DNA from: Bilabrum cf. latius
Lineage: Eukaryota
Assembly (NCBI GenBank): GCA_965178125.1
Contig: OZ237766.1
Location: 682,001-746,000, forward strand
Length of the DNA stretch: 64,000 nt
Direction: 5' to 3'
Shown piece by piece: positions 1 through 64,000 of the stretch (the first letter of the stretch is position 1; each line of letters opens with the position of its first letter). Made by a program: the position numbers and the translations under genes. The notes beneath the pieces are model-generated. The model had not been told where the DNA came from. It did no database searches and saw only the letters and a program-made list of their open reading frames with translations.

Positions 1-2154
1 GTCCTGACCCAACGATCCGAGCAATCGGGCGGGCCGAGCCCCGGCCTTGCCCCTGGCCCCCGGCGCGTTGCGGCCGAACCGACTCCTCTGCTTGCGCTTG
101 CCGCCGCTCGCGTGACCACCGGCGCCGCGCGACCTGCCGTGCCTGCCTCCTTCCCCATCGCCCCCCTCTCGCTCTCCCTCTTGCTCGCTGGCATCCTCAT
201 CCTCATCCTCATCACCATCATCACCGGCATTCTGCTGCTTGCTCCCCGCACCGCCAGCCGTCCACCGCTTGCCCCCCGCACCCGCCCCCCCTCGCGCTGC
301 ACCACCGTCCACGCCACCGCCCTCGCTTGTTCCCTCGGGCCCCAGCACGTCATCGAACAGCTGGAGGTATGCCCCCACCAGCTGTGCCGCCAGCGAGGGC
401 TCCGATCTCCTCAGTGGCACCTGAGACAGGAAAGCAACGGCGTAGTATCGCGCCCTCACGCGGCGCACCGCCAGACTCTCCTGTGGTCTGCCGCCACTGC
501 CGCCCCCGCGCCCCCCACCTCTACCCCTGCCCCTACCCCTACCTCTTCCCCTTCCTCTCCCCCTTCCTCTGCCCCCCGCTTCTCTCCTCCTCTCCATCTC
601 CTCCGCCACCATCCTCCCCTCATTGGCAGCCAGCCGAGCCAGCACCTGCCTCGTCTCCCTCACCACCACGGCGGCCATGGCCGGGTGCTTCTCCAGGAGC
701 CTCAAGAGGTGCTGCACCGCCCTCGAGGCGACCTTCCTGTCCTGGTCTCCGAGCCGATCCGCGAGCAGGGCCAGCAGGGGAGCCTCCCCCTCCGGTCTCT
801 CCAGGATTAGGTCCAGAGCGGCCGACATGGCCCGCTCCCGGGCCCACGCCAAGGGGTCCTTGGACGCCGACTGGAGGGAGTCGATGAGGGCGGCGAACCT
901 TCGCTTGAGTTCTTCCTCGAACACCCACAGGGCGAGATGCTGCGGGGTCACTCCGTCCCCGTCCAGCGGCCTCTCGTCAAGCCGGAACAGCCGCCTGTGG
1001 GGAGGCAGCAAGAAGCCCCCGAAGACCTCCCGTGCCACTTCTGCCGCCCTCGATGCATCTCTCCTGGCCGGCACTCGGGCCATGGTCAGCAGCTCGTCCT
1101 GCAGTCCAGTGGTTTGCACGGGGGCTCCCTGCACCAGGGCCTGGATGGCACCCAGCCGATCCGTGGCTGTTCCCTCGCCCAGCATGCGCCTGGTCAGTCG
1201 CTCGTCAGCTGACCCCGGGCTCGTCTCCCAAGCCCTGCCCTCTGCCTGCAGCATCAATCGACCGGCCTCCCGGCACTTGGCCACAAGCTCAAGCGTGCGA
1301 CGGACCTCGGCGGGGCGCGGAGGACGCTTGCGCTTTCCCGCGCCCGCGCGGGATCCAGACCCGCTGCCGGCCTCCTCCTCCTCCTTTTTCTTTTTGTCGG
1401 CCGCCTCAAGCGCCCTGGCCCGGAAGGTCTCCGCCTTTCCAGTCTCTCCCTGGGCCAGCAGCTTCCTAAGCTTGCGCTTCTGCGTCTTGGTTAGCTTGGA
1501 TTCGGCAGAGGCGCCGGCGGATTCCTCTTCACCTGCAGCGGCGCCTGCTGCACCTGCTCCCCCCTTAGCTGATTTCCGGCTGGCGCTCCGGGCCCGCTTG
1601 CGCTCTGCGATGGCGTTTTCAATGGATCGCACCGGGTCTCCGTCGATGCTGGCAAGAGAGGCCTCCGCCTCGAACCAAGTCTCCCCGGCGGATTTGGCTA
1701 GTTTGCCGTCGCTGGCACTGGCGGCTTCTTGGCAGGCAGACAAGAGGGCTTCCACGGCTTCTACGTTGCGAATCGTGTGCCGCTGCGTTGCAGGAGATGC
1801 AGACGACCACTCTGGCTCGGGCGCTGCCGGTGCCTCGCCGCCAAAGGGCTGGGACGGTTGGGACTAGTAGCCGCCGGATGCTCCGTACCCAGACTGGGGC
1901 CCAGCCGGGCGATCCCGGCCGCCTCCTCCAAACTTGCTATCACGAGTGCCACGGTACGAATCTGTTCGAGGAGCTTTGCCTCGCATAAGCTTGGTCGGCT
2001 GCCATGATTGCTGGTTCTGGTCACGGTTGCCGTACGAGCTTTGCCCCGATTGCGACCCGCTGCCCTGAGCCTCATCGGTCTGGTCTCTCTTGCGCTTCCT
2101 ACCACGCGACCGTCTTTGCGATAACTACCTTTCTGGCTGTGCTGCACTACTCAT
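1..2154 (-). CDS. CEBPZ: CCAAT-binding factor / ribosome biogenesis protein Mak21/Noc1 (CEBPZ)-like, 3' end runs off the window
   Basis: ATG at 2154 (MSSAAQPER*LSQRR...), with in-frame TAGs at 2125-2127 and 1864-1866. The translation includes GTATDRLGAIQALVQGAP, LALWVFEEELKRRF, PEGEAPLLALLADRLGDQDRKVASRA, KHPAMAAVVVRE and RARYYAVAFLSQ, which match the Mak21/CEBPZ N-terminal region. It is absent from the ORF track because no stop falls inside the window. Confidence 0.85.
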
Positions 2155-2346
2155 TTTGAGCGGCAACTGCCTTAAATCAGGCAATTGGAAAATAGGAGAA
2201 CAGGTCGCCATCCGCGAACGTTCCACGGTGACGAACGAACCAATCTACGGCAGGGTGCAGCATCCATTGGAGTGCGCGCAAAACAACTTTTTGTGAATAA
2301 CCTTTACCCGGAGAGCTATCTGGGCATATTTCGCGCACCGTTCGTC

Positions 2347-4324
2347 TCAGTCCATCCAGGGTGCCCAGTAGCCCCCTGTCTCGTTGACTTTGGCCAAAGC
2401 GCCGGGCAGGTCGGCGGAGCCCCCCGCATCTGACTGGAAGCAGTGCCGGCCCAGGGCATGGAACCTTCGCTGGAGCCTGTCTGCCACCTCCGGCAGCTGT
2501 TCCTTCAGATCCACGTATTCCGCGGGATCAGCCGTCACGTTGAAGAGGCAGCCTAGGGGACACCCGGGGGCGTCGAAGGGCAGCTTCGCGGTGCTGTTGG
2601 GGTAGTTGGGGCTCCACCAGTACCCGGAGCCGGATTGTGTTCCCTGGACCCACTTCATATCCCCCTGAATGAACGCGCCGTCGAACAGGCCCGTCGCTCC
2701 CTGGGTCTGGGTCAGCCCCCCTTCCTCCTCCCCTGCTGCTGCTGCTGCTGCTGCTGGTGCTGCTGGTGGTGGTTCATCGGGGTCCATGGGCATCCCCCCC
2801 GCCGTGCTCCTGGACCATACAGTGTAGTGCCCCGTGCGCTGGGAGGGGCCCGAGGGGGCCGCGAGTGAGCTCTCGTTGCCTGGCCTGCACGCCCCCGTGG
2901 CGGCATCGAAGTTGCGGTAGGACAGCAGCAGCTCCCTCCGAGGGGACTCTGTTCCCTGGGTCATGGACCCCCACATGTCTAGGGAAGTGGAAGGGGGGAG
3001 ACCCCGCGCCGTGGTGTTGTCCCCGCAATAGCCAGGGGTGCCCCCGCCTCTCTGGCACAGCGTGCGGTACCAGTCAGACACGTGGATCGTACCGTCGTAC
3101 GCAGTGCCCCTGGCGTCCTACGGCACGGCCCCGCCGGTCACCATGGCCACCGTCCTCACTCCGCCTTCGAAATCGTTCCCTTTGCCCCCCCTCAACGGAT
3201 AGTTGTTCGCGTTCGACGGGCCGCCCACCAGCGACGGGCCGCCGTTGTCGCTGCCGAACACCAGCAGAGTGTCTTCCCACAGACCCAGGGACTGCGCGGC
3301 GCCGGTGATGTTCCGCAAGGTCTCGTCCACGGCGCTGGCCATCCCGCTGTAGACCCTCCTGCCCTGGACCCAGTCCTCGGGGTACTGGTCCACCAGCCGG
3401 TCCGGGGCCTCGACTGGCTCGTGGGTGTCCTGCAGGGCCAGGTAGACGAAGAGCTTGTTCCGGTTTGCGGGGAGGCGGCCCTGGGCGAGGGCCTGGAGGG
3501 CACTCGTCACGCTCTGGACGGCGAGCGCAGCGTTCCAGGTTCCGTTGGCGCCGCGCGCGGGCGCGGTGGAGTTGTAGATGTCCGTGTGTCGCTGCGTGAT
3601 CTGCGTGTAGTGCTGCTCTCCCCCAGATAGGTAGCCCAGGCTCTGGTGGAAGCCCCTGCCGACCGGGGTGTAGTTCTGATGCGCGAGGCCCTCGTGCCAT
3701 TTCTGCACCAGGGGGGCGGGGATGGGGGGGGGATGGGGCGGGTGGGCGGGCGGGATGATGGAGAAGTATCCAAGAAGCTCAAAGTGGTTATCAAGATATA
3801 AAATATGGCGTTTGGAGTGACCAAGGTCGCATATTATGCTATGCTCACCATGACCTGCATGGAGTGGTACCCGAGCCCCGACATTTTGTGAGCGAGCGTG
3901 GTCATGCCCGGGTGCATGGCAGGGAGCGTCCATCCCCACTTGGCGTTGTTGAACTGGTTCACGAACGGAGGCAGACGTCCTGTTAGACTGCGCTATTAGC
4001 GGGTAGACAAACCACCCGATGCGCCAGTCAATCGAGAAGGGGGATCGGCAACAAGGTTGTTGGGTCCCGTGCCACATCCGGCCAAGCTCACAGTGAGGCC
4101 CGTGTGGGGCTGCAGAACTAATATGTATAGTGACGGTTGAGACGAATGCCATTCTTGAGCAAGTCATTCATGAACGGTGTCTTAGTTTCCGGATTGGTCC
4201 AGCCTATGTTGTAGTGACCCTAATCGTCGCTCAGGCACATGATAATGACTTTCGGGGGGGCTTGGGCCCATGCAGAACACACCAATGTGGCTGCAGCTAG
4301 AACAGACACATGCAGTCTCAGCAT
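2347..4324 (-). CDS. Arylsulfatase B-like secreted sulfatase; exons 4324-4092, 3987-3849, 3702-2347
   Basis: Signal peptide, then MCLSDD*GHYNIG, HYTY*FCSPTRASLLTGR (CxPxR formylglycine motif), KWH, SDNGG, NNYPLRGGK, FEGGVR and HVSDWY. Introns are 3988-4091 (GTGAGC...GCTAAT...CAG) and 3703-3848. In-frame TAGs at 4220-4222, 4118-4120 and 3118-3120; ends TGA. Confidence 0.9.
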
Positions 4325-4455
4325 GGCACGGCACAGTGGCTGCATATTCGGCGATCTTGGACTTCGGTTCGCATCGAACCCGGAACGTTCAGCAAGACAA
4401 ATAGACTAGTGCAGGCATCACCCAACGGAGTTCAAGTGCTAAAGTGCTTGATTGC

Positions 4456-6225
4456 ATGCCCCAAAATCATGTGGCCGTAGTGGTGCTAGGCGATTTGGGT
4501 CGATCGCCTCGCATGCAGTACCACTGCCTGTCGCTCGCCCGCGCTGGTGCCAACGTTTCGTTCATCGGGTACGACGAGGAGAAATGCACGCAGGAACTAG
4601 AAAGCAGCCCACGAATCACCAAGCACGGCCTATCAACGCCGTTTAATGGCTGCAGTCGCAAGCTATTCCTGCTCTGGGCGCCATTCAAGGTCCTCTTTCA
4701 GATTTTGCAGCTGCTATGGGTGTTGCTCTTCGCCATCAAGGCCCCCTCGGCTATTTTGGTGTAGAATCCGCCGTCAATACCGACCATGTTTGTAGCCTTT
4801 ATTGCCAGCAGGCTCCGCGGCGCTCGTTTCGTCATCGACTGGCACAACTTCGGCTACACTATCCTGCAGCAGACGGCCGGCGGAGGGCGAGCCAGCCACC
4901 CGCTGGTGCAGGCCGCCCGCGTGTACGAGCGTGTCCTGGGGCAGACCGCGGATGGCGGCCTCTGCGTGACGCGGGCCATGCAGGGCTGGCTGCGTGACGA
5001 GTGGGGCGTGTCCGCGCATGTGCTCCACGACAAGCCCCCGGCCTTCTTCCGGCCCCTTGGGGTGGACGAGGCCCACGAGCTGTTCCTTCGGCTGCAGAGG
5101 GAGGGAACGTTCGGTGCGAAAAGCTTCGAGGCGCTAGTGGAGCAGGGGGGGCCTGGGACAGGCGATAGCAAGGACCAGGGGGTGGAAAAGGGGCGACTCG
5201 ATCGAATGGAGGAGGAGGAGGACGAGGAAGACGATGGGGAGGTGACCATGTTCACGACATCATCTTCATCTTCATCTTCTTCATCGCAGGTGGAGGCCCC
5301 CCATTGGCGGCAGGACCGGCCGGCCCTCATGGTGAGCGGCACCAGCTGGACCCCGGACGAGGACTTTGGGCTGCTGCTTGAGGCCCTCGTGCTGTACGAC
5401 AGGGCGGCGGTGGAGTCGAGGGGCGCAGGGGGGGAGCCAGGGAACAGCGATGCAGGGGGTGGGGAACAGGGGCAATAGGAGGAGGATGCACAGAGAGACG
5501 GTTAGAAGCAGAGCAGGAGACGCAGGCGGGGCAGCAAGGACCTTAGCAAGGACCTTAGCAAGGGCAATGCAAAGAACAAGGCCAGTGGCAAGGGCAGACG
5601 GCTCCCCCGGCTGGTAGTGGTTGTTACCGGCAAGGGACCGCAGAAGGCCATGTACGAGCAGAAGATCCGGAATCAGAAGTGGACGCACGTGCAGGTCCGC
5701 ACGGCCTGGCTGGCCTCTGCAGACTACCCCCGGCTGCTTGGCTCCGCAGATCTCGGGGTCAGCCTGCACACCAGCAGCAGCGGGCTTGACCTGCCCATGA
5801 AGGTGGTGGACATGTTCGGGGCCGGGCTGCCGGTACTGGCGGCCCGGTTTGCGTGCGTGGAGGAGCTGGTGCGGGAGGGCGAGAACGGGGGTTTGTTCGA
5901 GGACGCCGATGGGCTGGCGGGGCATCTCGTGCGCCTGCTGGACGGGTGGGGCGGAGGGGGTGGTGTGACGAGTGATGGGGTGACGAGTGGGGGTCCGCTG
6001 GACCGACTCCGTGCTGCGGTGCTGCGGGCCAGGGAACAAGATGGCTGGGAGGAGAACTGGGTGAGCAACGCGAGGCCGGTGCTGCTGCCGGGGGGGATGA
6101 GGGGGGGAGGGGAGCACGACGACGAGTCCATCGTGGATGGGCCGGGTGAAGGGGAGGAGGCAGGGAGTGGAGCAGGGGAGACACCCGGCCGTGCACAGGG
6201 AAGAAGAAAGAAAAAGGATGAGTGA
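4456..6225 (+). CDS. ALG1: Chitobiosyldiphosphodolichol beta-mannosyltransferase ALG1
   Basis: Motifs VVVLGDLGRSPRMQYH, ILV*NPPSIPT, IDWHNFGY, SGTSWTPDEDF, VTGKGP and HTSSSGLDLPMKVVDMFG. One continuous frame across TAGs at 4762, 5476 and 5503; ends TGA. Confidence 0.95.
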
Positions 6226-11080: not shown

Positions 11081-12514
11081 TCACCTCAGCTCGGCCCCCA
11101 GCTCCTCGCTGGTTCTCCTCCTCACTTCCTCCTGCAGCCTGTCCACCTCCTCATTGGTCAAGCTCCTCTCCATGGACCGGTAGGTCACCCTATAGCAGTG
11201 TGAGAGCCTGCCCGTCTTTGGGTGCGTGAAGGAATCGATCAGATCCACACGCTCCGCCAGATCGCCCGCCACCTCGCGCACCAGCTCGAAGAAACTGTGC
11301 GCGTGGAACTCGGTCGTGGCGGCCCGCAGGTCGTCATCGTCTCCGTCTGGCGCACTCGCCGCGACTCCCTATCCCGCATCGGCTGCATCCACTTCTTTAT
11401 CGCCGCCGCTGCTGCGGCCGCTGCTGCCCGCCACGATCGCCTGACCAGGCAGCCAGAACGTGATGTCCTTGAAACAGGGCGGGTACTTGGAAAACGGCTG
11501 GAACCGGACAGCCAGGTCCCCCTCTTTGCCCCTGAACTGCGACAGGAACCGCTCGTCCTGGCTCCAGAACAAGCGGATGTCGGGAATCTCGAACAGCCGC
11601 ATGGCAAGGCGGTCCAGCCCGAGCCCGAAGGCCCACCCGGGCGTGTTCCCCAGCCCGCACTGCTGCATGATACCCCCGTGCACCATGCCGCATCCCAGCA
11701 CCTCCAGCCACTCGTCCTCGTGCCACACCTCCAGCTCCAGCGAAGGTTCCGTGAAGGGAAAGTACGCGTCTACCCACCTCATCCGAACGTCTTGCCCGAA
11801 CAGCTGCCTCGCCATGCCCTCCAGCCCCGCCCGGAGGTCGCTGACCACCGCCTCTCGCACCTCCTAATTGTTCCCTGGATCTACCCCCGCGGCCCTAAGC
11901 TCTTGTTCCCCGAACACCCTGACACCTTCCATCTGGTGGAAGACGGGGTAGTGCGTCTGGTCCACGGTGTCGCGGCGGTAGACGTCACCAGCCACCAGGA
12001 AGCCTTGTTCCCCCGCCCGCAGCAGCTGTGTCTGGTGGGCCGAGGTGTGGCACCGCAGCAGCCGCTCGTTATCCACGTAGAACGTGTCCGTGGGCGAGCG
12101 GCTGACGTGCGTCGAGGGAATCAGTAGGTCGTCGAAGTTCTGCTGCACCGTCACGATCGGGTTCAAATCCTAATAGAGCTTCAGGGGACGGCCTACCTCT
12201 AGCTACTTGCCGCTGGCGTCTACCATTGGTATCGTTGCTTGCGGCTGCTGCCAGTACTCCGAGGCGATGCGAGCAATAGAACGAAGCGGATGGTCCTGCA
12301 CCTCCAGCAATCGCCTGCCAACCCGGTCTATGATACCGTCAGGGACATTATTGCTATCATGCTTTACTTTGAGCTATCGCTTCACTTCGGTAATGTCGTA
12401 TCCCTGCTGCACGCCGACTGATGCGGCCGTGGCGCATCTGCGGCTCAATAGCGCTGATTGTGGCGTCGCCACATTCCATGCCCTGCGTCCTTGACGCAAG
12501 CACCGCTGTAGCAT
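11081..12514 (-). CDS. FARS2: Mitochondrial-type (monomeric) phenylalanyl-tRNA synthetase
   Basis: Arg-rich transit peptide MLQRCLRQGRRAW, then NFDDLLIP, LLRCHTSAHQ, GDVYRRD, HYPVFHQMEG, YFPFTEPSLELEV, GWAFGLGLDRLAM and a C-terminal FDX-ACB (SHCYRVTYRSMERSLTNEEV). In-frame TAGs at 12374, 12203, 12170, 11864 and 11369; ends TGA. Confidence 0.95.
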
Positions 12515-12674
12515 CAACAAATAAAACAACCTTCGCGTTGGATTGCGCCACTGCAATAGAGGTAAAGATGTATTCGCATTTGTTGCAGGCACATTGCTGA
12601 CGAGTGCACAAACGATAACACGCAGCTGCCCACAGCAAAGCAGAAGCTACATATTGCAGTGCGGAAATGTTATC

Positions 12675-15600
12675 ATGAACTTCGTTTGTTTGTTGCAGGT
12701 TCTGGTCGCTTTGTGTACGCTGCAAGCCAGGGACGCGGCGGCGCGCGGCAGCACTCGTGGTAGCTCAATATCGCTACAGCCCGGACAGCTCCTTGCAAGA
12801 TCTGCGAATGGGCCCATGAAACTGTATGCACTCGAACCAAAGTACCATGCGACCGCATGGTGGCCTCGCTTTGTGCAAGCTGCGGAGATGCTAAAGATTG
12901 GTCGTAGTATCGAAGCCGAGCACCTGTTTCGAGGCGCTCTGCAGCAGGGAGGCATCCCAGACGACGCTGCGGCGTTTGCACACGGCATGCTCGCATCATT
13001 ATTAGCGTCGAAGTTGCAGCTGGAGGAGGCCGCGACGCAGTGGCACCTGTCCGCATCACACTGGCGCGCGGCAGGCCCGGCGCGCTTCCACTCGATGCAG
13101 AGAGACAGAGGCGGTCCCGCCAGCGGTGCAGCGGCACAGCGCAACCGCCAGCATCACATAATTGCATCGGATTCAAGCGATAACCCCCCTCCCGCTCGGC
13201 CCAGGCAGCTTGCAGCGGACCCGGCCCGTCACTCGATGGCCGCTGCCGCGCTTGCGCAGGAGATGCTGGGCAGGCAGGCCGAGGCCGGGGCGGCGCTGCG
13301 GGAGGCGACGGACGAAGAAGATTCGGAGCCGGAATTCGGATCGGGTTGGGAACGGGGGTCCTCTTCCCCCTCCAGCGCGCTTGCACTGCACTGCAGGGCC
13401 GGGATGTCCCTGCGCGATGCGGACTTGCAGGCCTTCGCCTCCTGGGGTAGGCGGGCGATCGAGGCGGCGGGGGCGGCGGGTGGGTTCCGGGCGAGGAGCA
13501 GGGAGGGGGCTGGTGAGGGTGCATCGCATGCAGGTGCGGGTGGGAGGTATCCTGGTGTGACGAGTGGTCCCAGTCCTGGGTCACGGCTTGGGCGTGGGCG
13601 TGGGCGTGGGCGTGGGCGGGGCAGGAGCCATCACGGGAGGGGGAGGGGTGCGAAGATGCCGGTGACATTGGAGGAGGGTCCATTGCATCCTTTGGGAAAC
13701 AGGGGTGCGATCGATGGCGTGACGAGTGAGGAGGAACGCGCCGGTAGTGTGACGAGCGGGGATGCCATCAGCAGCAACTCCAAATCGACCCCAAGCACGA
13801 GTAAAAGACAAGAACTACGACAAGGACAAGCAGAGGAAGCAGCCCCAGTCTGCGAGGAGGACGGTCGCGGGCGCATCGCGGTGGTGGAGTGCCTGGCCTC
13901 TCGCGTGAGGCATCGGTTCAGGGCTCCGATCGATCTGATCCCGTGGGTCATGCGCAGCGTGGCGCTGCGTGGGATGCAGAGGCGCCCCCCAGCGGGAGCG
14001 TTGTTCCCTGGGGGCATGCGGGCCGCGGAGGAGCTGGCAGTGGCTGGGGTAGCGAGCGGGCTGGGGGGCGGGGCGGCGACCGTGGGAACACATAGCGGTG
14101 TGACGAGTGATGGCGGCGGCGCATCGCATGGTTATGACGTTGACGGCGGTACGGGTGCACTGCATGATAGTGGGAGGGATCCGATGGCGGCGGGCCGTCT
14201 CGATGGCGGCTGGTGGTGGGGCGGGCCGCATGCGGGTGCATCGCACGGTGGAGCAGGTGCATCGCACGGCACTGAAGTGAACGCGACTCAGCTGTGGTAG
14301 GAATCAGTGCACGCGTCCAGGTCGCATTGGACGTCTTTGGCCTCCTGCGTGCTAGCTGTGGAGAGGGGGGAGTGGGAGCGGGGGCTGTGGGCTCTGCACA
14401 TGCGGCTGGGGTAGTCCCTGCAGGACGTGGGGCTGCCCCTGCAGGCGGGGAGGCACTTTGGGAAGGTGCCTCTCGCGGCCAGGATTGCGGATCACTCGTC
14501 ACACGGTGGTGGTCACTCGTCACACCGGGAGGAGGCGTCCAGGCTCAGCGCGTGGACGCAGATCCACGCAGCCCTATCCCTGCCCCTCGTCCATTCGTCA
14601 CACCGTGCGATCCAGGAGGCCCGCTCCAGCCTGGTCCGCCGACTGACGAGTGCACTGGGCGAGGGGACCCGCATGCACGACGTGCACCGCGCGCCTGACC
14701 TGTATGCGACCTTCTTCGCCCTTGGGCACGCAGGCCCCTCTAGCTCGAGGCGGGTGATGGAGGACGCGGGGAGGCTGCTGGGGCGGGCCCACAGCCCGGT
14801 GCTGGGGTGGGAGGCGCCCTGGGTCAGGGTGGTCAAAGACGCGGTGGAAGGGGGAGGGGTGGCCAAAGGGACGGCCGCATTGGAGCCAGAGTCAGGAGTC
14901 GGAGGGATCGGTGGGAAGCATGCACCGCAGGGCAGTGCAGGCAGCGCGGGCCACGGAGCCAACGAATGGAAGGCACTGCGGTGGCTCTACGGGCTGTCTC
15001 TTAGACCCAGTGTGACGAATGGCGGGCAATCAGCCGCCTCCCTGGCCCGCCGCCCGCTGCCCCGCGAGGCCAGGCGGGCCCTCGGGAGGTGGATGGGGGC
15101 GCAGGTGCTGGCGCCGGCGGGGGCGAACGGCACGGCGGGAGCACACACGGGAATGGGCGGGATCGGTTCCGCGGGACCAACACTCTCCGTGCCCCACACC
15201 CCGCCCCCGCCCCTCCGTGTGGGGGTGCTCTCGACCCAGCTGCGGGACGGGCCGGAGGGGCACTTCCTGCGGCGGCTGGTCCAGAGGCTGGCGGTTGCAA
15301 CCGGTGGAGAGGTTGCAACTGGTGGCGGGTTGGAGTGCAGGTTGGGCAGCCGGGTGGCGGCGGCGAGGGAGGGCAGGAGGGCGGGCGTGTCCTGCCAATG
15401 GGTCAGGAAGGGGGGGAGGGAGGGGAGCAGTGGTGGTGGGGGCTTGCAGCATGCAAGGCAAAGCTCACAATCCCCTGGACTTGGTGTTCCCCCGGAGATC
15501 CAGGTGGTGCTGGTGCTGCCCCGACCAACCGGTGACGCGGTCACGAGGGCGGCCATGGGGGCCGCGCACACGGTGCTGCGCCTGTACGACCACTCGTCAC

Positions 15601-28608: not shown

Positions 28609-28871
28609 GAAAATCACCCAAACACTATAACTTCAACAGTAGAACTACCACAATTTGACGCCCTGCTGCCGAGTATCGTTCAAGTGGTTCGCGCGGGCCT
28701 ATTCGTGTATCGAAGCCAAACAGAAGTACAGCGGAGCAAAGCTCTACGATTCGCCCTGTGCAGGGTGCCGCGCATCGTGTGAGGTTCCGCAACGCAGATC
28801 GGATGAACCCACGGACAACCAGCAGTGTACTTGCCCCCGCGCCAGCAACTAATCGTTTGCAGTAGAGCATA

Positions 28872-40906: not shown

Positions 40907-40975
<69 letters not shown>

Positions 40976-48809: not shown

Positions 48810-49580
48810 ATGGCAGCTAGCTCTGGAGCCGCGCATTCTGCCGCCGGTGGTGGTGCAGAGCCAAAAGATGTTACGTAGGATGAAAGCAAGCAGCTCAGGA
48901 GGGTATTCGACTACTTGTGCGACTATGCTGCCAAGAGCAAGCTGGAACGCGAACGACAGCCAAAGTTAGAGCGAAAGAGTAAAATTTTGGCATACAAAAA
49001 GAATCCTGATGCAGTAAAAATTGTTGATGATACGGGCCGAGAGCTCACTGCTGCCTAGATTGATGCAGAGCTGCGACGAATAGACGAGGAGTGCGAGGCG
49101 ATCACGTCGAGCATTCGGGAGATCGAAGACAAGGCAGACAAGAAAATCCACCCACGGGATCTTATGGAAGCGATCGCAAAGCTAGGAAAGCGCTCATCGA
49201 AGAAGGAAATCGAAGACATGATCTGGGAGGTGGACGAGAACCTGGACGGTTGCGTGGACTGGGACGAGTTCCAGCTCATGTTCGAGCGCAACGTGAAGGA
49301 CACGACCGGCCTGGAGCCATACCACCTATTTGCAGTCGTGCAGTTCATGATGTACGACAAGGACGGGGGCGGGGAGGTGAGCGTGGACGAGACCATGCAC
49401 ATGCTGTACGCCCGGTACGGCAGGGAGCGGCTGTAGGAGGAGATGAAGGCGCTGTTCGGGGACGAGCTGAATGCCACGGGGGACGCCACTCTGACCTTCA
49501 CGGATTACCTGAAGGCAGTGGAGGCCAGACTGCCCAAGAGGAAAGGCAAGCCGGGGGCGGGGTCTGTTGCGGGCAAGTGA
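48810..49580 (+). CDS. Calmodulin-like EF-hand protein
   Basis: Motifs VT*DESKQLRRVFDYL, EIEDMIWEVDENLDGCVDWDEF and MYDKDGGGEVSVDETM. TAGs at 48876, 49056 and 49434; ends TGA. Confidence 0.9.
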
Positions 49581-49738: not shown

Positions 49739-52700
49739 TCACTGCCCTTGCCCCCGCCCTTGCACGCGCACCCCAATTGCCCGGGCCCGCTGCAGCACCG
49801 CCTCATGAGCCGCCCACAGGGATTCGACCCCGGGATCTCGAGGGACACCAACATTCGATGCACCCTACCACAGCCTATTCGCGGGTCCAAATCCCTGTGC
49901 TTTCGGTGCTGCAGTGTACTGCACCCCTGGAGCCACATCCGGAACAAACGCGGGCTCATGGTTTCGGTAGGCTGGTCGCTGGCCGGCTGCAAGGTACCCC
50001 GCACCACCATGCGGTGCACCCAACCCAGCTTGGCCCCCAAGACCTTGCCCTGCGCTCCCAAAGTCCATGGGCACCCGCCCCCACGCACCGGGGAGCTAAC
50101 CTCCGGCCCCTCCACGGCCCCATTCTCCTGCCCGACCCCATTCCCCTGCCCGACCCCAAGACGGGGTCGGTTGCCCAGGAACGCCCTCACCATCTGTGGG
50201 ACGCAATCCAACGTGGACCACGTGTGTACCGCCAAGCGCACCGTCGAACCCAGACGGCGCATCGGCAACCGCTGCCTCCTTCGCATGGACAGACGGCGCA
50301 TCGGCAGCCGCTGCCTCCTTCGCATGGACAGCCTCGATGCCGCTGGGACGCCGCGAGTGAGACATATACCCAGCGGCCGGGCCTCGGCCTGGGGCTGGGG
50401 CACTATCAGGCGAGGCATAGCCGGTGCTTGCATGATTGCCAGCTCCCGGCCGTGCTCCAGGCCCACCCCCCATCCCCAGGCCCATGCCAGTCACCCCCAG
50501 CCCCAGATAGGGCTGGTGCGACGGGCTCCACTCGGCCCGCTGGCCGAATCCAGGCTGTGCTCGAGCCGCTGCCGCTCTGGCCATGGTCAAACTGGCATCT
50601 GCCACCAGCCTCTGCAACCACTGTCCCTCTGCGTCTCCCTGCCTGTCCTACTCCCCGCCCTTCCCCTCGTCCTTCTCCCCGCCCTTCCCCTCGTCCTGGG
50701 TCTGTGACTGGGTCTGTGACTGGGACTGTGACTGGGACTGTTCCTGGCCACCACTCACAGGTGCACCTTGTGCATCCGATGGTGATGCTTCTTTATCATT
50801 AGGCCCAATCCCCCGTGCATGGTCCGGGGCTAAAGCCCCCCCCAGCGTCTCGAATACAGTGGGCTGCCCCGGTGGAAGCGCATGAGCAGGGGCCTGTGGA
50901 GCCAGCATGCCGGCCCCCTGCACCGCCACCCCCGGGGCACTCCCCCTAGCCATCGCCTCCCTCGCCCACTGCACCGACAGCTCCCGACGGCGAGCGGCGT
51001 CGCCCCCCGGGTCAGCCACCCCCTCCGGCTGTTCCCCGAGAGCAGCGGCAGCGGCCTGCTGCCACCCCTGCGCCATCCTGAAGGTCGCGCCCTCTGCAGT
51101 CGCAGGGTTGCCCGCCCCCGGCACGCCCAGCGAGGCACCCGCCGCGGCCAGCGCCCCCCTCACCTCCGCCTCGCGAGCAGCCCCCGCGCCCCATGCGTCA
51201 GAGGCAAGTCCCAAGGAGGCGCCCAGAAGGCGGTCTGCCTGCCGCCCCGATTCCTCCGCCGCGGCATCGTGGGCCCCCCCCTGCATCCCCAGCTGTGAGG
51301 GGGAGGGCCCGTCCAGCAGCGCGTCAGCAGACCCAGACCCAGACCCAGACCCAGACCCAGACCCAGACCCAGACCCAGACCCGGACCCGGACCCGGACAC
51401 AGGCTGGCTTCCCTGGTCCAGTCCCTCGCCCTCGCCCTCGCCGTGTTCGCCCGCCTGGATCCTCTCTTGTTCCCCGGGCCCACTCGACCCGACGAGTGGC
51501 TTGAACACGGTGGGATGAGCAGCCGGGGCGGGATACGTCGAGGGCCCCACCCCAGCTGCGAGCAAGGCAGCGGCGAGAGGGGGGCCTGCCTACGCGCCCG
51601 CCCCCTTCTGCTGACCTGACAGCGGTGGGACGGACACGGCAGGTGCACCCGGCTGCTCGGGCGCTGGCGGCGGCCTGGGCTGCCTCACGGCCGGCAGCGC
51701 CCGAGCCCACTCCCTGACCTCTGCTGCCTTGTCCTGCACCCCTGCACGGGCCCCCTCTGCAGCCAGCAGCCCAGCTGCCACCTGCCTGCGGTAGCCCTTG
51801 TTCTCCAGCAAGGGGTAGGCCCTCGGCAGCAGCCGCGCCGCTTTGGCCACGTCCTCCGCGCTATCCGACTGGGCCAGACCCAGGACCTCCACCACACCGG
51901 GGCTTTCTCCCAGCGGATCAGCGCCGCTCCCACCACCACCACCATCCCCATCCCCATCCCCATCCCCGCCTGCCGCCGCCCCGCCCCCACCGAGCCGCCC
52001 CGTCCCCCGCAGCCTCTCCAACGCCACTTTCCCCCTCCTGCGCCAACCCTCCGTGGCCCGAGCAGCCGCCGCCAGCTCGTCCTCGAGCTCCCCACCCGCC
52101 TCCTCCTTGGCATCCAGTGCGGCCTGCTCCTGCGCAGATGGCACGCACAGCCCCGGGGGCTCCCCGCTGCCGCTCCCATGCGCCGCCCATGCCTCCTGCA
52201 GCGTGGGCGGGTCGTCTCCCTCCTGCACCCCCGGGGGGATGCTCGCGCCGCCCTTGCCATCGAGACCACCCGCTCCACCGCGGCCATGTTCCTCCTCCTC
52301 TTCCTCCCCCTCCTCCTCTTCCTCCTCCTCCACCGTGGTGTCGACTGCCACGGCCAGAGCAGGCACCCCCGAGGGCAGCAGTCGCACCCACAGGGGCTGC
52401 CGCTGGCCCCTCGCCCTGGCCAGTGCCATGGATGCCCCCTCCTCGGGGGTCCCCGCGCTGGAGGGGTCCTTCCAGGGGTCCTTCAGGGGCAGGCCGCGCC
52501 GACGGGCAGCCTTGCGCTGGGTCCACAGAGAGGCCAGGGCGGGGGCGGGCAGCATGGCAACCGGCCACCCCCCCGGGGCAGCGCCGGCGAGACAGGCCAT
52601 GGCCCGGGGAGGAGGGGGCCTGCGCGCGGGAGGGCTGTCCCCTTTCTCTTCCTCTTCCTCTTGCGCTTGCGCTTGCACCTCGGATGCCGCTTTAGCTTCG

Positions 52701-54974
52701 GCTTCCGTTGATCCCTAGGCTGTCTCTTCCGTCTACTGCTGCGGTCCCCCGTCACCCGCTTGTTCTCCGTCCTCGGCCGGGTCACGCTCACCCTCCAGTG
52801 TGCATGCCTCCCGCACCAGGTCGGTGAGGGCAGTGGCCACGCTGCACCGACCCACCCCCTCCTCCACTCCCAGGGCACCACCCCACGCCTCGGGTCCATT
52901 GGGATATGGAGCATCCTCTCCATCCCCTTCGCCCTGTTGGTTATGCCCTTTGGCTGCACCACCACCACCACCACCTCTCCCGCTCCCGCTGCCTCCAGCC
53001 CCTTTGCCCAGGTCAGCACCCCTAGCCTCTAGACCCTGGCTATTGTCGCGCCCCGCCCGGCCCCCACTGTCCACCTCCACGCCTTGCCGCAATGCTCCTT
53101 CCTCTCCTGTGAACGCGCCGGTGCCAAAGGCCCCAGCAACCTCCTCACCCCCTTGCCACCTAGCACCAGCACTACCGCCAACCCGCCGCTGCAGCCCGGC
53201 AGGCACCAAGTCGCTCCTCCGGACCCTGCCACGCGCCAGTGCCGCCCGCTGCCCCGCTCCCTACACCTGCGCCACCAGCCGCCCCGCCATCTGGGCCCTC
53301 TGCTGCTGCTCCCTCAGAGCTCGGATGGCCCGCGCCTCGGCCGCGGAGTGCTCCTGCCGGGCCAGCTGCAGCCGCCGCTGGAAGGACAGCATACCCGTGT
53401 CCAGCGCGTCACCGATGCGCCGAGCCGCCTCCCGGACACCCTCGCCAGCCATTCTTCTCCCCACCCCCGGCACCCCGCCCATCCCGCGCCCCTCCACCTC
53501 CCGCAGCACCTCCCGGGCCCCCGCAGGCACCTGCAGGCCCCGCATCAGCAGCCACTTCCTCCCCAGCCCGTGCCCCGGCCCGTCGTTTACGTCCTCATCA
53601 GCCACCGCCCCTGAATCCTCCTGCTCTTCGTCGTCCTCGTACTCATCCTCGAAATAGTCCTCGTACTCATCCTCATCCTCGTCCCAGTCGCCCGTGCCGC
53701 CTCCGTACGTGTACTTCTGTCCTGCGGCCGCCCCCGAGCGGGATATCCTCCCACCGATGCCCCCACCATCGCGGTCCACCCGTCTCCCGAGCCAGTCTCG
53801 GCTCGAGTGCGGGCCCGGGGGCAGAGGCGGGTGCACGCGCCTCGCCGACAGCCTGTGTCCGGCCCTTGCCCTGGCAGCCGCGACCGTCTGCTCGTGAGGA
53901 GGAGGCAGCGGGCGGGCCGCGCGCGCCTCTGCCGACAGTTCCCCTTGTTCTCCGGGTGCACTGCCTTGCAGCGCGCCCACCGCCCTCTCCAGCACGGGGT
54001 CCATCCCGCGGCCCCTCCTGCTCCTCTCCGCCGCCCCGGCAGCCGCCCGCCCCACCGCGGCCAGGGCGCCATCCACAGAGGCAGCCACGCGAACACCGAT
54101 CGACCGCCGGGGGGAGGGGGGTCCGAACCCGGCTTCCATCCACCCGCCCCGGCCCCGGCCCCCGCCCCCTTCCAGCCCCAGCCCCAGCTCTGAGTCCTCG
54201 CCCTGCTGGAACAGCCCTTCACCCACGGCACTGGGCAGCGAGCCCGCCGCCTCCATGGCCCCCGACAGATTCCCCTCCTCATCTTCTTCGTCTCCATGCC
54301 CCGTGCCTTGTTCCCCCAGGCTGGCCCCGATGGCCGAGGCCCGCCGCCGGGCGGCCTGCAGCAGGGCAGCCACGGAGGCGCTGGCCACGCTGTGGGAGAG
54401 AGAGGCCAGGCCGGGGGCGTGCACGTCTGCGGGGCCAAGGTCTGTGTCTTTTACACCGGAAGGCGGGCGCAAGCGCGCCTGAAGCCGCCCGCGCGCCCCT
54501 GTGGGCTTGTTCGGTGGTACAGCAGGCCCCGAGGTCGATGGCTGAGCAGGCTGGCTATCTCGGCTGCGATTCAATAGACTGACATACGTGGGTAGGTCTC
54601 AGATGCGAAAAGGAAACGAATGATTTGACCGGTATCGGGTTGTTCATACGCTGTCTGCGTTTGTCTCACAGCGAAGGCTCGCTCAAGTCATCGCTCGGTC
54701 GCAGTCCAGACGCACGGACTGCCCCTGCACGGCTTCGTGGGGGGCGGCTAGATGTGTTTTGCGTTAATTTACTTGCAATGGATTCCATGCCAGGGTCACC
54801 CGAGACAGGCTGTCCAAAATCTCGAGAAGAAGGCGGATCGATCGGCGCTACCGGGGACGGATGCAGCCACCATGGTTCTTTATCCTCTGTCTTTTCCGTC
54901 TATGATTGTCTAGATTCTCGACTTTGGGCAGCCCCTTCCCTAAAACGCTTGATCAGCTCCTTAGCGGTCGCCAT
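49739..54974 (-). CDS. Large low-complexity protein with PROSER3-like N-terminal motif; intron 54579-54669
   Basis: Starts MATAKELIKRFREGAAQSRESRQS*...PWWL, followed by a phase-compatible GTGAGA...TCAG intron. Six ORF-track fragments lie in one frame joined by TAGs; ends TGA at 49739-49741. The family resemblance is from recall only. Confidence 0.6.
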
Positions 54975-55100
54975 TTCCGTGTGAATAGCTTTGAATTGCC
55001 GCAACGGCTGGAAGTTCGCTACGATGTCACGAACGTTCTGTGTGGCTGCGTAAACATCAATACCATTGTCCGGTGCGGTAGCAAGAGACGTCTGATATAC

Positions 55101-56393
55101 ATGAAGCTTGTTCTGACAAAAACTTTGTGGGGGTGCGATGAGGTAGCACATCCACAAAAATGGGCCGGCTTGCTCGAGCGTGTGGTTGCACAAGGCTTCA
55201 ACGCGATCGAAATCGCGGCTGCTGGTCTTCCCGGTGACGGAGCTCTGGACAAGAAATGGGCGGAAGCCGTGAAAGCGAGCGGTCTCAAGCAAGTTGTGCA
55301 GCTGCACACTTGCGGCTACGTGGCTCGCCCAGGTGCGGCGGCCATGAGCCACGGCATCTTCGCGCAGGGCATCGTTGGGTCGGAGGACCCCAAGGACCAC
55401 CTCCGCTCGTTTGAGGAACTGACCAAGCGAGCCATGACGATGGGAGCGGATCGAATTAACTCTCACTCGGGTCGGGACTCGTGGGATACGCCTACGGCGG
55501 TCGCATTCCTGCGAGATGCGATCGCAATCTCGACACGACTGGGCGTGGCCGGCATCACGACCCACGAGACGCACCGCCAGCGCATCATGTGGAATCCCTT
55601 TTAGGCCATGGCTGTCATGCGGCAGATCCCTGAGCTGCGAGTCACCGCCGACCTGTCCCACTGGTGCTGCGTGATGGAGCGCGTGCCCGACACCGAATCG
55701 GACAGAGCGTGGGGCACGGGTGAGAGCAAGGGCGAGAGCAAAGATTCGGAGCCAAAAGGATGGGCCGCCATGCTGGAGCTGCTCGCAGACCGGGTGGACC
55801 TGATCCACGCGCGAGTGGGCGGGGCCGAGACCCCCCAGGTGGGGCACCCCGCCTCCCCCGAGGTGAGCTACGAGGTGCAGGAGCACGAGGGGTGGTGGGC
55901 CCGCATCCTGCGAGGGATGAAGGCGAGGGGGCTGGAGGAGGCATGGGTGGAGCCGGAGTTCGGAGCACCCGGGTATCAGCGCGTCACCCCCTTCACATGC
56001 ACGCCGGAGGAGGACCTCTGGGAGGTGAACGGATACATGGCGGGCCGGGTGGCTGTGCTGTACAGCAAGCTGCACCTCAATGAAGATACCGAAGGCAGCG
56101 ATGCAGGCAGCTTGAAGGCGGGAAGTGCGAAACAAGCCACTGGCAAGGGGGTAGGCGGCATCCCGGCGCCTCTGTTGAAGCTGTACAAGGATGGAGAGGC
56201 AAGGGGGGAGGTGGCTCGCAGGAGGCTAGCGACAGGGGGTGCAGAGGTAGGGAAGCCCCAGGATAACTTGAATTGGAAGGGCGGCGTGGTTTTGCTCAGC
56301 GTTGGGCTGGCGATAGGTTTCTTCGCTGGAATCGCGCTTAAGCCGACATTGGAGCGAATGATTCGAAGCAGTGGCCGCAAATCTACCAGTTAA
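55101..56393 (+). CDS. Xylose-isomerase-like TIM-barrel sugar phosphate isomerase/epimerase with C-terminal TM anchor
   Basis: Motifs KTLWG, INSHSGRD, HETHRQRIMWNPF*, LRVTADLSHWCCVMER, IHARVG and PEFGAPGY. TAG at 55602; ends TAA. Confidence 0.85.
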
Positions 56394-59693: not shown

Positions 59694-61115
59694 TCATGTA
59701 CTACCACCACTGGCTGCCTCAGCTGCCTCGCTGTCCCCTCCCTTACCCTCCGCTTGCGCGCACCTCCGCACATGCCGGATCACCTCCGCGTGCACCTCTC
59801 TTGGACCAGCTGAGGCCACCACTCCCAGCGAGGTGGGCAGCCGCCTCCCGTGCGAGAAATCAAGCTCCCTCCCCTCCCCGTCCGTCACGCAGCCGCCGGC
59901 GGCCTGCAGCACGGCAGCCCCGGGCGCGTGGTCCCACACCTTCTCCCTGTATCCCGCCTGAGGGAAGCGCAGGTACAGCTGGGCCTGCCCCCGGGCCAGC
60001 AGCCCGTACTTGGCCATCGAGTCGATCCGGACGGGGGCCTGCTCCTCAGCCGGTGGGAGGCCAAGTGAGGTTGCGACCGCCTCGCTGAGCCCGTGTGACG
60101 AGTGCCCCGACTCGAAGGACTCGACCAGTCGGAATGCGGAGAGAGGGCACGGGCTCGGGCTCGGGCTGGAGCTGGAGGGGAGGGGGGCGCAGGACTGGCC
60201 GCCGGGGAGCATCGACACCAGGTCATCCGAGTGCGTGCTGTCACCCTTCAAGTTGATTGTGCCCGCCGCAGCCAAGCCGTCCTCCTATTCCTTTTCCTCT
60301 TCGTCACCCCTGCCGGCCGTGGAGGCGCGCTTCCTCTCGGAGGCAGGCGCCACTGGCACTGGCACTGGCACCGGGAGCAGGGAGCTGCCCACCTGGCTGG
60401 CCTCGAGAGTTGAGGCGATAGGGAACTGTGCGCACTGAGGGGTGCCACTAGCAGTGGCCAAGCTGCCTACAAACAGCGTCCCGTTGCCCTCGCCACCGCC
60501 GGCTGTGTGCTCGCCGTGGTCGAACCCGAGGTTCGGACACGCTATCACCCCTGCGATTGCCCGAGCCCCGTCCACAAACCCCAGGCCAATAGAGTACTGA
60601 TGATCTTTGCCGCGAAGGAATCCTTTCGTTCCATCAATAGGATCTAAGCAGAAATATCTTCCCGCGTACTCTTCCGAAGCGGTGGGATCAAATGTGCCAG
60701 CATCGAGAGCCTCACACACAGACACTTTGTCGACGGCCTTCGCATCAAGATATGTGCACCCCGCAGCCCCTTGCTTGATTGCATCGATCACAGCAGAGCA
60801 AACCGATCCATTCTCCCGAACCGCAGAAGAATCCTCCTCGCCAATGACAGGCAGAGCCGCATGCCCGCCTTCGAGCAACTCGGGATCCCGCTTGAGCAAC
60901 ATAACTATAAGAGCCTGCACAGCAAGGTCTCCAATCGTAACGGGTGACAGATCATCTTTCGACAGACTAAACCCTGCACCAGCAGAGCCTGCGGTCGCAG
61001 GTTGAAGCCTACGAGTGATGGTTGCAGCTCGCAGAACGGCTCTAGAAGCCGCTCGAATGTAGGCCATGTGTAAGTGATCTGCACTTGAATCTGATTCGTC
61101 GGCAGCTGCAGCCAT
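59694..61115 (-). CDS. 3'(2'),5'-bisphosphate nucleotidase (HAL2/MET22/SAL1 family)
   Basis: Motifs KDDLSPVTIGD, GEEDS, LDPIDGTKGFLRG, GVIACPNL, ESFESGHSSH, RIDSMAKY and YREKVWDHAPG. TAG at 60285; ends TGA. The start could be slightly upstream. Confidence 0.92.
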
Positions 61116-61392
61116 GTGGGCTCGCAGTATGCCCCGATCGGGTAGATCTAGAGTTGCACACATCTCACTCTTCTTCTTCTTGGAAGTCGCACGCACGGTA
61201 GGTGCAGCCGAGTGCGGTGTACCCTACAAGCAACTCATATAGACTGTGCTCTTACACTCACAGACGGAAGCATGTTTGCAGAAAGTGCGCCAGGGTATCG
61301 CAGGCAGGCCTGCGAATCAAGCATTGATGGCGACGTGCTGTATTCGACAGCCCCTCAGGCTGTTTTGCGTTGTTTTGTCCACCAGCGGCGGC

Positions 61393-64000
61393 TTACCCGG
61401 TCCCCTGCTCCGCCAGTCTCGCTCGGATGTGCTGCACCGTGTCAGCGAACTCCTCGCTCGTCACACCCGATACCTTGGCCGCGTCCTTCGCTGGGATGAC
61501 GGTCCCCCCACTCCCTGCGACCCCTCCCTCCCCCTGGGCCTGCTCCCCACCTCGTGACCCCGCCCCCATCCGGTGCACCCCTGCAACCCCCCCGCCTCGT
61601 GACCCCGCCCCCATCCGGTGCACCCCTGCAACCCCCCCGCCGCGTGACCCCGCCCCCATCCGGTGCACCCCTGCAACCCCCCTGACATCGTCTGATGACA
61701 CGCTCATATCCCCCCGAGCCCAGTCGCTCCCCAGGCTCCTGTTTCCCTCCCCCGCCATGGGGTCACCCCCGCCCCCCCTGCTCCCCCCCGCCAGCCCCAT
61801 GAGCCCCCTCATCTCAAGCAGGTCGCTCACGCTATACAGGCTCTGGTTTCCCTCCCCCGCCATGGGGTCATTCGGGTTTGTGCCGGGCACGTGGTGCATG
61901 GCGCTGCTGTCGCCGAGCCCCGCCCGCAGTCGCTCCATGTCCGCCACGCTAGCAGGTCGGTGTGCATGTGCAGGCTGCGAGTCGGACTCCCCTGACCCTT
62001 GCTCGAGAACAGCGCTGCTGATCCGGCCCCGGCCACTGCCGCCGTGCGGATCCTCCGAGACGGATGACGACGAGGAGGAGGTGATGTTGCCAGGCGCCAT
62101 ATCACTGCCGTGCAGTGCACCAATTCCCAACCCCACAGCTCCACGGGCCCCTGGTGTCCCCGGGACGCTCACGCTGCCTGCAGATCTAGCCCCCAGCCCC
62201 CCGTGCACGGGGCCCGCCCCCGCTTGTGCCCCGACCTCAGCCCCTGCCCCCCGCTGCTGCCCCTGCCCGTACATGCTGCCCAGCGACTGCGCCCCGATGG
62301 ACAGCGCGCCCAGCCCCATGAAACCCCCTGCTGGACTACTCCCCCCCGGACTCTGGCTATGCTCCTGCACGTGCCCCTAGCCTTGATGCAGGCGCAGGGT
62401 GTGCTGGGGTGCCCCCGGGGGTGTATCGCTGGGCATGGTCATCATCTGCTGCCTGTGCTCGTCCTTGATGTCCCGCTGATGCTGCATCATTTCAATGCTG
62501 TTCTGCATCTGCTGTAGTGCGAGCATGCGCTGCATGTGCAGTGCACGGTGGTGGTGCAGCTGCTGCTCCCTGTAGGCCTCCGCAGGGCCGGTCATCCCAT
62601 GCACGCCTGCATACCCCTAACCCCAGCCGGGGGACGATGCGGGGTGCCCCGGGGGGTACGAGGGGGCGCCAAAGGCCCCTTGGGCGGCCGCCGACAGACT
62701 CTTCAGCCCCTCATGCCTCGAGCTGTGCGAGCTGGCGGTGCTGCGGTTGGACGAGACATGCTGGCTTGCCGGGCCAGTGTTTGGCAGGACGCCGCCCATG
62801 CGATCCGGTCGGCGACCTGAATCATGGTACGACTGCCCGGGGCCCCGCCCGTGGAGTCCTGGAGCAGCAGGTGGCAGGCTGGGCGGCACCGGATGCAGAC
62901 TGAACTCGGAGCCCTGTGAGTGTGACGAGTGTGCCGCCGGAGCGACGGGTGACTCGGGCCTGGAGCCGACTGCCACCCCATATCCCATGCCATGGGCCCC
63001 CTTGCCCTTGCCCTTGCCCTTGCCCTTGCCCTTGCCCTTGCCTTTGCCTTTGCCCGCTCTCCCCCTGCTTGACCCAGGCCCTGCCCTCGGGGCCCTCCCC
63101 TGCAGCGTGGCATCCGCGGCCCAGTCAGACACAACAGTGGGTCCGCCCAGGCCCAAATACTCCCGAAGGTGCGGGGGGACTGCAGGGCCCTGCTGGCCTG
63201 CCTCTGCTCCGCTTGGGCTGGAGCCATCCCCCCCCCTGCCTGCACCCTCGGCAGGGGGGGGCAGCACGGGGATGGCAGAGCACACGAACATCTGCGCCTG
63301 CCCGTCGCTTGCCCGCAGCAGGGACATGGACACCAGCGAGGACACGGTCCCTCGCCTGAACTTGCACAGCTTGCGGAAGCAGTGCACCATCGGAGTGCCG
63401 CACCCGTCCTGCCCCACGGTGCCAGCCAGCGGCCTGGACTGCGCCGCCACCATCATGGCAGCCCTGGCGTCTTCGCACGACTCGCAACTGTGGCGGGAGG
63501 CGTCCTCGGCCGATCCCTTTCCTCTTCCATTGCCTTTCCCCTTCCCCTTTCCTGTACCTCTACTTCGATCACTGCCCGCACTGATGCTTCCCTGTCCTGC
63601 CTCCGCTCCGTCACCACCGCCATCACCACCGCCATCACCACCGCCATCGCCACCGCCACCCCCATTTACCCCCCTGCCTTCCTGCTTGCCCTGGTGAATG
63701 AGGGAGGACACCACGTCGAACATGCTGTCCAGCTCGCTCTGGGGGGTCAGCGAGAACACGCTAGAGGCGCGGAGCTGGTCTGCCGTGTACCCCGTGAGCG
63801 CCCTGAACAGGGCGTTCGTGCGGCGGAAGGAGCCGTCCGGGGCTGCCACCGCCATGGCCACGGGCGCCAGTTCGAACACGCAGGGCAGCGGCAGGGGGGC
63901 GCCGGGCAGCGGCAGCAGAGCGCCGGGGGCAGGCACGGGGGTGGGTCGCACGGGGACTGGGGCGGTGTAAGAAGGGACTCCCCCTTGGGAAGGCAAGCCG
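61393..64000 (-). CDS. PAS-domain protein, probable bHLH-PAS/bZIP-PAS transcription factor; 5' end is outside the window
   Basis: Contains VFELAPVAMAVAAPDGSFRRTNALFRALTGYTADQLRASSVFSLT...FDVVSSLI and a later VSMSLLR...MFVCS. TAGs at 62617 and 62377; ends TAA. Confidence 0.75.
61553..61682 (-). repeat. 45-bp coding repeat x3 (GVAGVHRMGAGSRGG)
   Basis: Units start at about 61553, 61598 and 61643. Confidence 0.85.

Follow-up and report, generated by a model that had tools for sequence, protein, structure and literature searches.

We find that a stretch of DNA from Bilabrum cf. latius, hereafter the window (the whole 64 kb analyzed here, positions 682,001 to 746,000 of contig OZ237766.1 in assembly GCA_965178125.1), very probably comes from a genome with an altered nuclear genetic code. 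In this code UAG is a sense codon, most probably for glutamine (Gln), UGA (the usual stop) and UAA terminate translation, and the change is an old one. The window is 63% G+C and carries typical eukaryotic nuclear genes, which we labelled from their Pfam and PDB matches, along with several very long reading frames of low complexity; it is nuclear DNA from a protist whose genome is rich in GC and has few introns. A run search found the stretch in 7 sequencing runs from 3 studies, none of which is recorded as RNA.

In-frame TAGs are abundant in the window. The original prediction, made from the sequence alone, had claimed more than 80 of them in about 20 genes, and our count of 85 in 23 long open reading frame (ORF) segments agrees with it. 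A small number of these TAGs fall outside coding sequence: the one in the WDR5 gene is intronic, and some lie 5′ of likely start codons even though they were counted (those at 48411, 48447, 48567 and 2247 are examples). Under the standard code, the window contains a single ORF of at least 1000 amino acids (aa). Reading through TAG raises this number to seven, reading through TAA leaves it at one, and reading through TGA yields three. TGA is the most frequent of the three stop trinucleotides, 1.7 times commoner than TAG, yet its readthrough yields fewer of these ORFs (3 versus 7). Across 11 segments whose coding frame is supported by homology (5,236 codons), the coding frame contains 19 TAGs, no TAA and no TGA; in these segments the corresponding TAG/TAA/TGA counts are 39/11/111 for one of the alternative frames and 22/12/67 for the other. 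TAG is used 3.6 times per 1000 of these homology-supported codons, similar to CAA at 4.6 per 1000. That TAG is a sense codon in this genome is firmly supported.

Homology crosses the TAGs without gaps in the genes for PheRS, ALG1, a sulfatase and a DC3-like protein. All five of the TAGs predicted in the mitochondrial-type PheRS gene (11081..12421, minus strand, stop TGA) are present, with first bases at 12376, 12205, 12172, 11866 and 11371, and the alignment with human mitochondrial PheRS (E=2.7e-103) has no frame change across them. The three TAGs predicted in the gene for ALG1, a beta-1,4-mannosyltransferase (4456..6225, plus strand, stop TGA; Pfam GT4/GT1), are likewise where they were expected, at 4762, 5476 and 5503. 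For this protein 120 homologues were listed, with E-values down to 1e-132; the TAGs at 5476 and 5503 fall inside a lineage-specific insertion. The sulfatase gene, which encodes an arylsulfatase and has GT-AG introns, lies on the minus strand. Its exon 1 (4094..4345), which runs from the signal peptide to the CSPTRAS motif, has TAGs at 4222 and 4120 and is followed by a GT-AG intron, and its last exon (2347..3711) has a TAG at 3120, ends in TGA, matches Pfam Sulfatase and aligns to ARSB with E=3e-45. The DC3-like gene (48870..49580, plus strand) encodes an EF-hand protein of the flagellar outer-dynein-arm docking complex (PDB DC3, E=3e-31; 150 representatives aligned) and contains TAGs at 48876, 49056 and 49434.

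A relative of this organism in metagenome data has the same trait. Metagenome contigs were scanned with the PheRS protein of the window, returning 80 loci, two of which, L001 (7,413 nucleotides (nt), 55% GC) and L002, are separate records that are identical over all 5,559 nt of L002. L001 is syntenic with the window: it encodes the N-terminus of the long ORF that begins at 12525, followed by PheRS, ALG1 and the sulfatase, all of them arranged and oriented relative to one another as in the window. Its proteins are 67-77% identical overall to those of the window (77% for PheRS, 68% for the last exon of the sulfatase). L001 has in-frame TAGs of its own, six in PheRS, three in ALG1, three in the sulfatase and two in the orthologue of the 12525 ORF, and their sites differ from those of the window in all cases but one, the TY-TAG-FCSPTR site of the sulfatase. 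The remaining PheRS loci serve as a control: 72 of the 80 are without an in-frame stop inside high-scoring segment pairs, six have one or two mixed stops, and only L001 and L002 have six in-frame stops, all six of which are TAG. Because the proportion of nonsynonymous differences between the window and L001 (pN, 0.15-0.23) is far below that of synonymous differences (pS, 0.74-0.77, saturated), these genes are functional in both species. The trait is common to the window and L001 and so predates the split of the two species.

These comparisons bear directly on whether the TAGs are translated at all. They could instead belong to pseudogenes or short introns, stem from assembly or sequencing errors, or be restored to CAG by U-to-C editing, and in a few places part of this explanation is correct. 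The WDR5 gene (47092..48330, minus strand; Pfam Beta-prop_WDR5) had been offered as an essential gene with a sense TAG, but its sole TAG, at 48018, sits in a 183-nt in-frame intron (approximately 47866-48048) that is absent from WDR5 structures, the PDB alignment placing query residues 95-155 as an insertion between WDR5 residues 99 and 100. The WDR5 ORF reads straight through this intron because 183 nt is a multiple of three and the intron is without TGA or TAA; introns of this kind can pass for coding insertions once TAG is treated as sense. Several other TAGs are in insertions or upstream regions. The 3′(2′),5′-bisphosphate nucleotidase HAL2/SAL1 (59694..61130, minus strand; Pfam Inositol_P) is correctly labelled, as SAL1/HAL2 structures attest, but its TAG at 60287 is in a lineage-specific insertion; the alignment with PDB SAL1 is split around query residues 205-333. 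The label of the CEBPZ gene also stands, with a match to yeast MAK21 (E=8e-25). Only the N-terminal part of this MAK21/CEBPZ homologue is in the window (1..2160, minus strand), where the gene leaves it, and its TAGs at 2127 and 1866 are in the disordered N-terminus.

As an account of the TAGs in general, however, lack of translation is extremely improbable. TAGs occur in ungapped conserved blocks where the orthologue has a single sense codon instead, the frames are interrupted by TAG alone and never by TAA or TGA, and the same trait is seen in a relative that was assembled independently and occurs in two metagenome records. The genes are under purifying selection in both species; together with the in-frame TAGs of the relative, this selection excludes that the TAGs as a whole are due to pseudogenes, to hidden introns or to errors of assembly. 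Editing would need dozens of sites per 64 kb, and we know of no nuclear editing system that acts at such a density.

Gln is the most likely meaning of TAG, an assignment that we make with considerable confidence from comparisons of homologous sequences, and glutamate (Glu) is the main alternative. Gln was also the meaning originally proposed and remains the best-supported one, on evidence thinner than had been held, since a single one of the points first raised in its favor is diagnostic. This is the TAG at 4762 in ALG1, which occupies the conserved Q of a QNPP motif as claimed: the column is Q in 120/120 homologues, and the aligned codon in L001 is CAG. Two sulfatase sites said to tolerate Q, DD-TAG-G (4222) and Y-TAG-FCSPTR (4120), are present as described, but in solved relatives their columns are leucine or methionine (L/M) and proline (P), respectively, and provide no evidence for Q. 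Support for Gln at the first of them comes from L001, whose sulfatase has CAG-Gln at the DDxG site; at the second, L001 has TAG as well, making this the site common to both species. As minor support, the Pfam match of sulfatase exon 1 is listed solely under the Gln reading of TAG. At four aligned TAG sites in PheRS, the L001 orthologue has Q, serine (S), lysine (K) and threonine (T). In the DC3-like protein, three of the four closest homologues have Q at the position of TAG 48876, a further minor point in favor of Gln. A glutamate-receptor-like or solute-binding membrane protein (22226..23860, minus strand; Pfam SBP_bac_3 and Lig_chan-Glu_bd) has TAGs at 23764, 23701 and 22732, and in a close relative, P0241 (76% identical), the corresponding residues are valine (V), Q and T, the Q lying within DMWV-x-(H/Y)VWP.

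We weighed the candidate residues across orthologue pairs, using TAGs of either species that lie in ungapped blocks of at least 50% local identity and have a sense codon as partner. The 13 reliable sites have the partners Q (4), E (2), K (2), S (2), glycine (1), alanine (1) and histidine (H; 1). All four of the Gln partners are CAG, one transition from TAG, and none of the 13 is leucine (Leu). Likelihoods were then computed with empirical substitution matrices built on the same window-relative alignments. With a matrix from all columns, Q scores -31.5, S -38.2 and E -38.3, placing Q ahead by 6.7 nats. A matrix from reliable columns gives -38.1 for Q and -40.4 for E, a lead of 2.3 nats, which grows to 5.0 nats (Q -46.7, E -51.7) when the V, Q and T partners of P0241 are added. 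Tried on real codons at n=13, the same classifier assigns 57 of 58 sense codons to their true residue and misses CAG, a failure that is an artefact because nearly all Gln data are then omitted.

Several observations weigh against Gln. At the PheRS TAG at 12172, the column among 120 homologues is D (102), S (6), E (4), N (4) and Q (1), and at the DC3 TAG at 49434 it is E (96), D (21) and Q (2) among 150, with 23 gaps. Because L001 has Lys at the former site, we regard PheRS 12172 as relaxed in this lineage; deep acidic columns at TAG sites are nevertheless an unexplained wrinkle. In a Codetta-like test, profile hidden Markov models were made from the homologue sets and log emissions were summed over the 11 TAG sites of the window and the relative that fall in match states. 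The sums were -24.8 for E, -25.1 for Q, -27.8 for K and -29.1 for D. TAG had been expected to map mainly to Q columns, but in this sum E and Q tie. Under the strictest filter (9 sites), Q leads E by just 1.8 nats. True Gln sites are conserved between the two species in 51% of cases, so four Gln partners in 13 is a rather low number for such sites, with four or fewer in 10% of draws (p=0.10). Finally, comparisons among repeats and paralogues give mixed partners, with Q, K, S and H once each.

A sense codon for Glu, serine (Ser), lysine (Lys) or Leu could draw on much of this. UAR (UAA and UAG) encodes glutamate in some trypanosomatids and ciliates, and the two acidic columns and the marginal first place of E in the profile sum point in that direction. 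Two TAGs of L001 align to GAG-Glu of the window in the well-conserved motifs LF-x-IPD and PE-x-AP, and Pfam scores barely separate Q from E in the L001 sulfatase and in a xylose-isomerase-like TIM-barrel protein of the window (54906..56393, plus strand; TAG at 55602; Pfam AP_endonuc_2), which scores 27.3 bits with Q, 27.4 with E and 25.2 with S. One repeat unit pairs TAG with AAG-Lys. We nonetheless consider another residue improbable. The invariant ALG1 column has no E, S, K or L among its 120 homologues, the Gln partners are uniformly CAG, Leu is absent from the 13 partners, and P0241 has Q in its conserved motif. The resampled draws agree: 13 true Glu sites give at least four Gln partners in 0.3% of draws and as few as two Glu partners in 0.01%, and the equivalent figures for 13 true Ser sites are 0.01% and 0.07%. 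The orthologue partners thus fit true Gln sites; Glu is rejected at a p of about 0.003 or lower, Ser is rejected as well, and this comparison decides for Gln over Glu.

Repeats within the window were considered as a further line of evidence and set aside. A run of CAA CAG TAG reported in the low-complexity long ORF at 39983..43747 (plus strand, 14 in-frame TAGs) is indeed found, occurring four times with four TAGs at 41465-41577, as is the alternation of TAG and CAG in a QAHG repeat, with its TAG at 43025. The repeat units provide one TAG/CAG pair and one TAG/AAG (Lys) pair and reflect mutational neighbours only. In the ankyrin-like paralogues at 10166-10897, 30414-31301 and 43959-45452, the residues opposite TAG are S and H, and one copy looks degenerate; we treat these paralogues as uninformative.

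With UAG assigned most probably to Gln, the remaining stops can be considered. Long ORFs of the window end mostly in TGA and in a few cases in TAA. At the C-terminus of PheRS (ELGAELR), L001 ends with TAA exactly where the window ends with TGA, and the sulfatases of both species end PWMD-TGA. All six of the C-termini comparable between the species (PheRS, ALG1 and sulfatase) end in TGA or TAA, and none in TAG. By these comparisons TAA and TGA both terminate, with modest support for TAA. The absence of in-frame TAA is weak evidence because only about 2.5 would be expected in 5,236 codons if TAA encoded Gln, judging by the CAA:CAG ratio. The cases that bear on TAA as a stop are few, and this tells against the assignment. 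We also considered a code in which both UAG and UAA encode Gln (NCBI table 6) and rejected it, within a power limited by the rarity of TAA at 63% GC, on the absence of in-frame TAA, the TAA that ends PheRS in L001, and the finding that TAA readthrough barely lengthens ORFs and merges none of them. The code looks like one in which UAG is Gln and UAA and UGA are stops.

UAG might also have a dual or ambiguous meaning, either through near-cognate readthrough that inserts a mix of Gln, Lys, tyrosine and Glu, or as a sense codon internally and a stop near mRNA ends. The context-dependent codes of the Condylostoma and Blastocrithidia type are precedents for the latter. The mixed orthologue partners and a Gln conservation (4/13) below expectation are compatible with such a meaning, and because our ORFs were delimited by TAA or TGA, poorly conserved genes that end in TAG would escape notice. 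The density of TAGs speaks the other way: with up to 14 in one ORF, and five to six in the PheRS of each species, near-complete decoding is needed for a full-length protein. TAG is also as frequent as a rare synonymous codon, and the six comparable C-termini use TGA or TAA. A dual meaning strikes us as very improbable.

Under such a code, cytoplasmic translation would read UAG as glutamine. A putative tRNA-Gln with the anticodon CUA, most simply derived from tRNA-Gln(CUG), would decode UAG, and eRF1 would have lost recognition of this codon. The expected anticodon follows an argument made for Iotanema, that a tRNA reading UAG but not UAA must carry CUA (PMC5304391). Changes in eRF1 would be expected in the motifs that recognise stop codons, GTS, NIKS and YxCxxxF in the N-domain, and one at the Thr of GTS is reported for Iotanema (PMC5304391). 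The window itself carries neither component: a tRNA scan of the 64 kb found no tRNA genes, and eRF1 is not among the genes there. An Rfam scan of the window and L001 gave no matches.

A UAG-only Gln code is equivalent to NCBI table 15. Among the cases named in the literature, UAG alone encodes Gln, with UAA as a stop, in Iotanema spirale (Fornicata), Protocruzia tuzeti and two phyllopharyngean ciliate lineages (PMC5304391, PMC11687900). The window resembles these in that UAG is sense, best read as Gln, and UAA and UGA are stops. It differs in its lineage, which to judge by two single-gene trees may lie among bicosoecid-like stramenopiles, in having a GC-rich genome that terminates mainly with UGA and not with UAA, and in that a second, diverged species has the trait too. 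Reassignment of both UAR codons to Gln (NCBI table 6) is found in many ciliates, hexamitid diplomonads, some Ulvophyceae, Streblomastix and Amoeboaphelidium. The window shares with these the reading of UAG as Gln, for which a derivative of tRNA-Gln(CUG) is presumably responsible; unlike them, it has no in-frame TAA in 5,236 codons, and TAA ends the PheRS of L001 at a conserved C-terminus. Other changes of UAG alone include those to Leu in the rhizarian exLh, Ser in Scotinosphaera and Glu in an uncultured ciliate (PMC11687900). In these lineages, as in the window, UAG and UAA no longer share a meaning, but the orthologue partners of the window are poorly matched by Leu, Ser or Glu.

The placement of the organism comes from two maximum-likelihood trees, one of PheRS with 20 rows and one of ALG1 with 21, in which the window and L001 are sisters (100/100). 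In both trees the pair groups with Cafeteria and environmental sequences, and in the ALG1 tree it falls within a supported group that holds Blastocystis and oomycetes. We tentatively place the organism near bicosoecid-like stramenopiles; the placement is tentative because it draws on two single-gene trees that include few named sequences. Full-text literature searches, which had subscription journals and supplements outside their scope, turned up no stramenopile in which a nuclear stop codon is reported as reassigned, and as the assembly is recent a description may exist elsewhere. It is possible, and we suggest it with due caution, that the window and L001 represent an unrecognised clade of bicosoecid-like (Bigyra) stramenopiles in which UAG alone was reassigned to Gln before the two diverged, a change that would be the first reassignment of a nuclear stop codon in stramenopiles. 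If true, the clade would be a natural test case for how UAG is freed while UAA stays a stop, in a GC-rich genome with UGA-dominated termination.

Nuclear code changes are rare, and those that split UAG from UAA are rarer. The codes separating the two codons that are named in PMC11687900 belong to a fornicate, a rhizarian, a single genus of green algae and a small number of ciliates. A further independent case, seemingly in a stramenopile, in a GC-rich genome and in two diverged species, would be a data point on stop-codon capture. There are also practical consequences. Gene calling with the standard code cuts short the majority of proteins in this organism and in its relatives, which probably explains why they are nearly invisible in protein databases, and annotation, phylogenomics and metagenome binning of the lineage need code 15.

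The remaining long ORFs of the window vary in TAG content. A repeat-rich ORF of 1530 aa (24040..28632, minus strand) has 10 in-frame TAGs, an ORF of 1619 aa (49739..54598, minus strand) has 7, and a PX-domain protein of 1306 aa (31978..35898, plus strand) has 6. The 1782-aa ORF at 12525..17873 (plus strand), the one whose N-terminus has an orthologue in L001, has 4 and ends in TAA. By contrast, a GH95-like glycoside hydrolase ORF of 1167 aa (36058..39561, minus strand) has no TAG, against about 4 expected at the TAG rate of the window. Its third codon positions have a G+C content of 0.81, one of the highest values for any long ORF here, and the absence of TAG possibly reflects high expression or recent horizontal acquisition.

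The ALG1-PheRS region differs in content between the two species. Between ALG1 and PheRS, at 6300-11080, the window has approximately 5 kb that L001 is without, containing a ricin-like ORF, an unknown ORF at 7502-8665 and the ankyrin-like gene at 10166-10897, whose paralogues are the two others named above. Distant homologues of ALG1 and PheRS (P0122/P0028 and P0162/P0106; approximately 35-52% identity) occur on equal-sized contigs of 68,508 and 38,028 nt, and the ALG1-PheRS neighbourhood may be conserved well beyond this lineage.

The window is also rich in recurrent words and tandem repeats. The 12-mer GTGTGACGAGYG is present in 30 copies on both strands, versus 0.02 expected from shuffles (example sites are 5963, 13555, 14098, 18897, 33029, 41670 and 62920). 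Almost all copies are within long ORFs, where they translate as GVTS when read from one strand and as HSSH from the opposite strand. ALG1 has an exact GTGTGACGAGYG at 5963 and the shorter GTGACGAGTG 15 nt downstream, and L001 has neither; this distribution suggests either that 12-nt insertions preserving the frame took place recently or that the word is strongly favoured at the DNA level. A second word, GGTGCATCGCACGGTGG (peptide GASHGG), occurs four times, at 14235, 20549, 20870 and 43418, in different long ORFs. Two long, near-perfect tandem arrays are present, one at 26162-27606 with a 45-nt unit encoding the peptide GAQSEGGAEVDGEVD, inside the repeat-rich ORF at 24040-28632, and one at 29346-29816 with a 24-nt unit.

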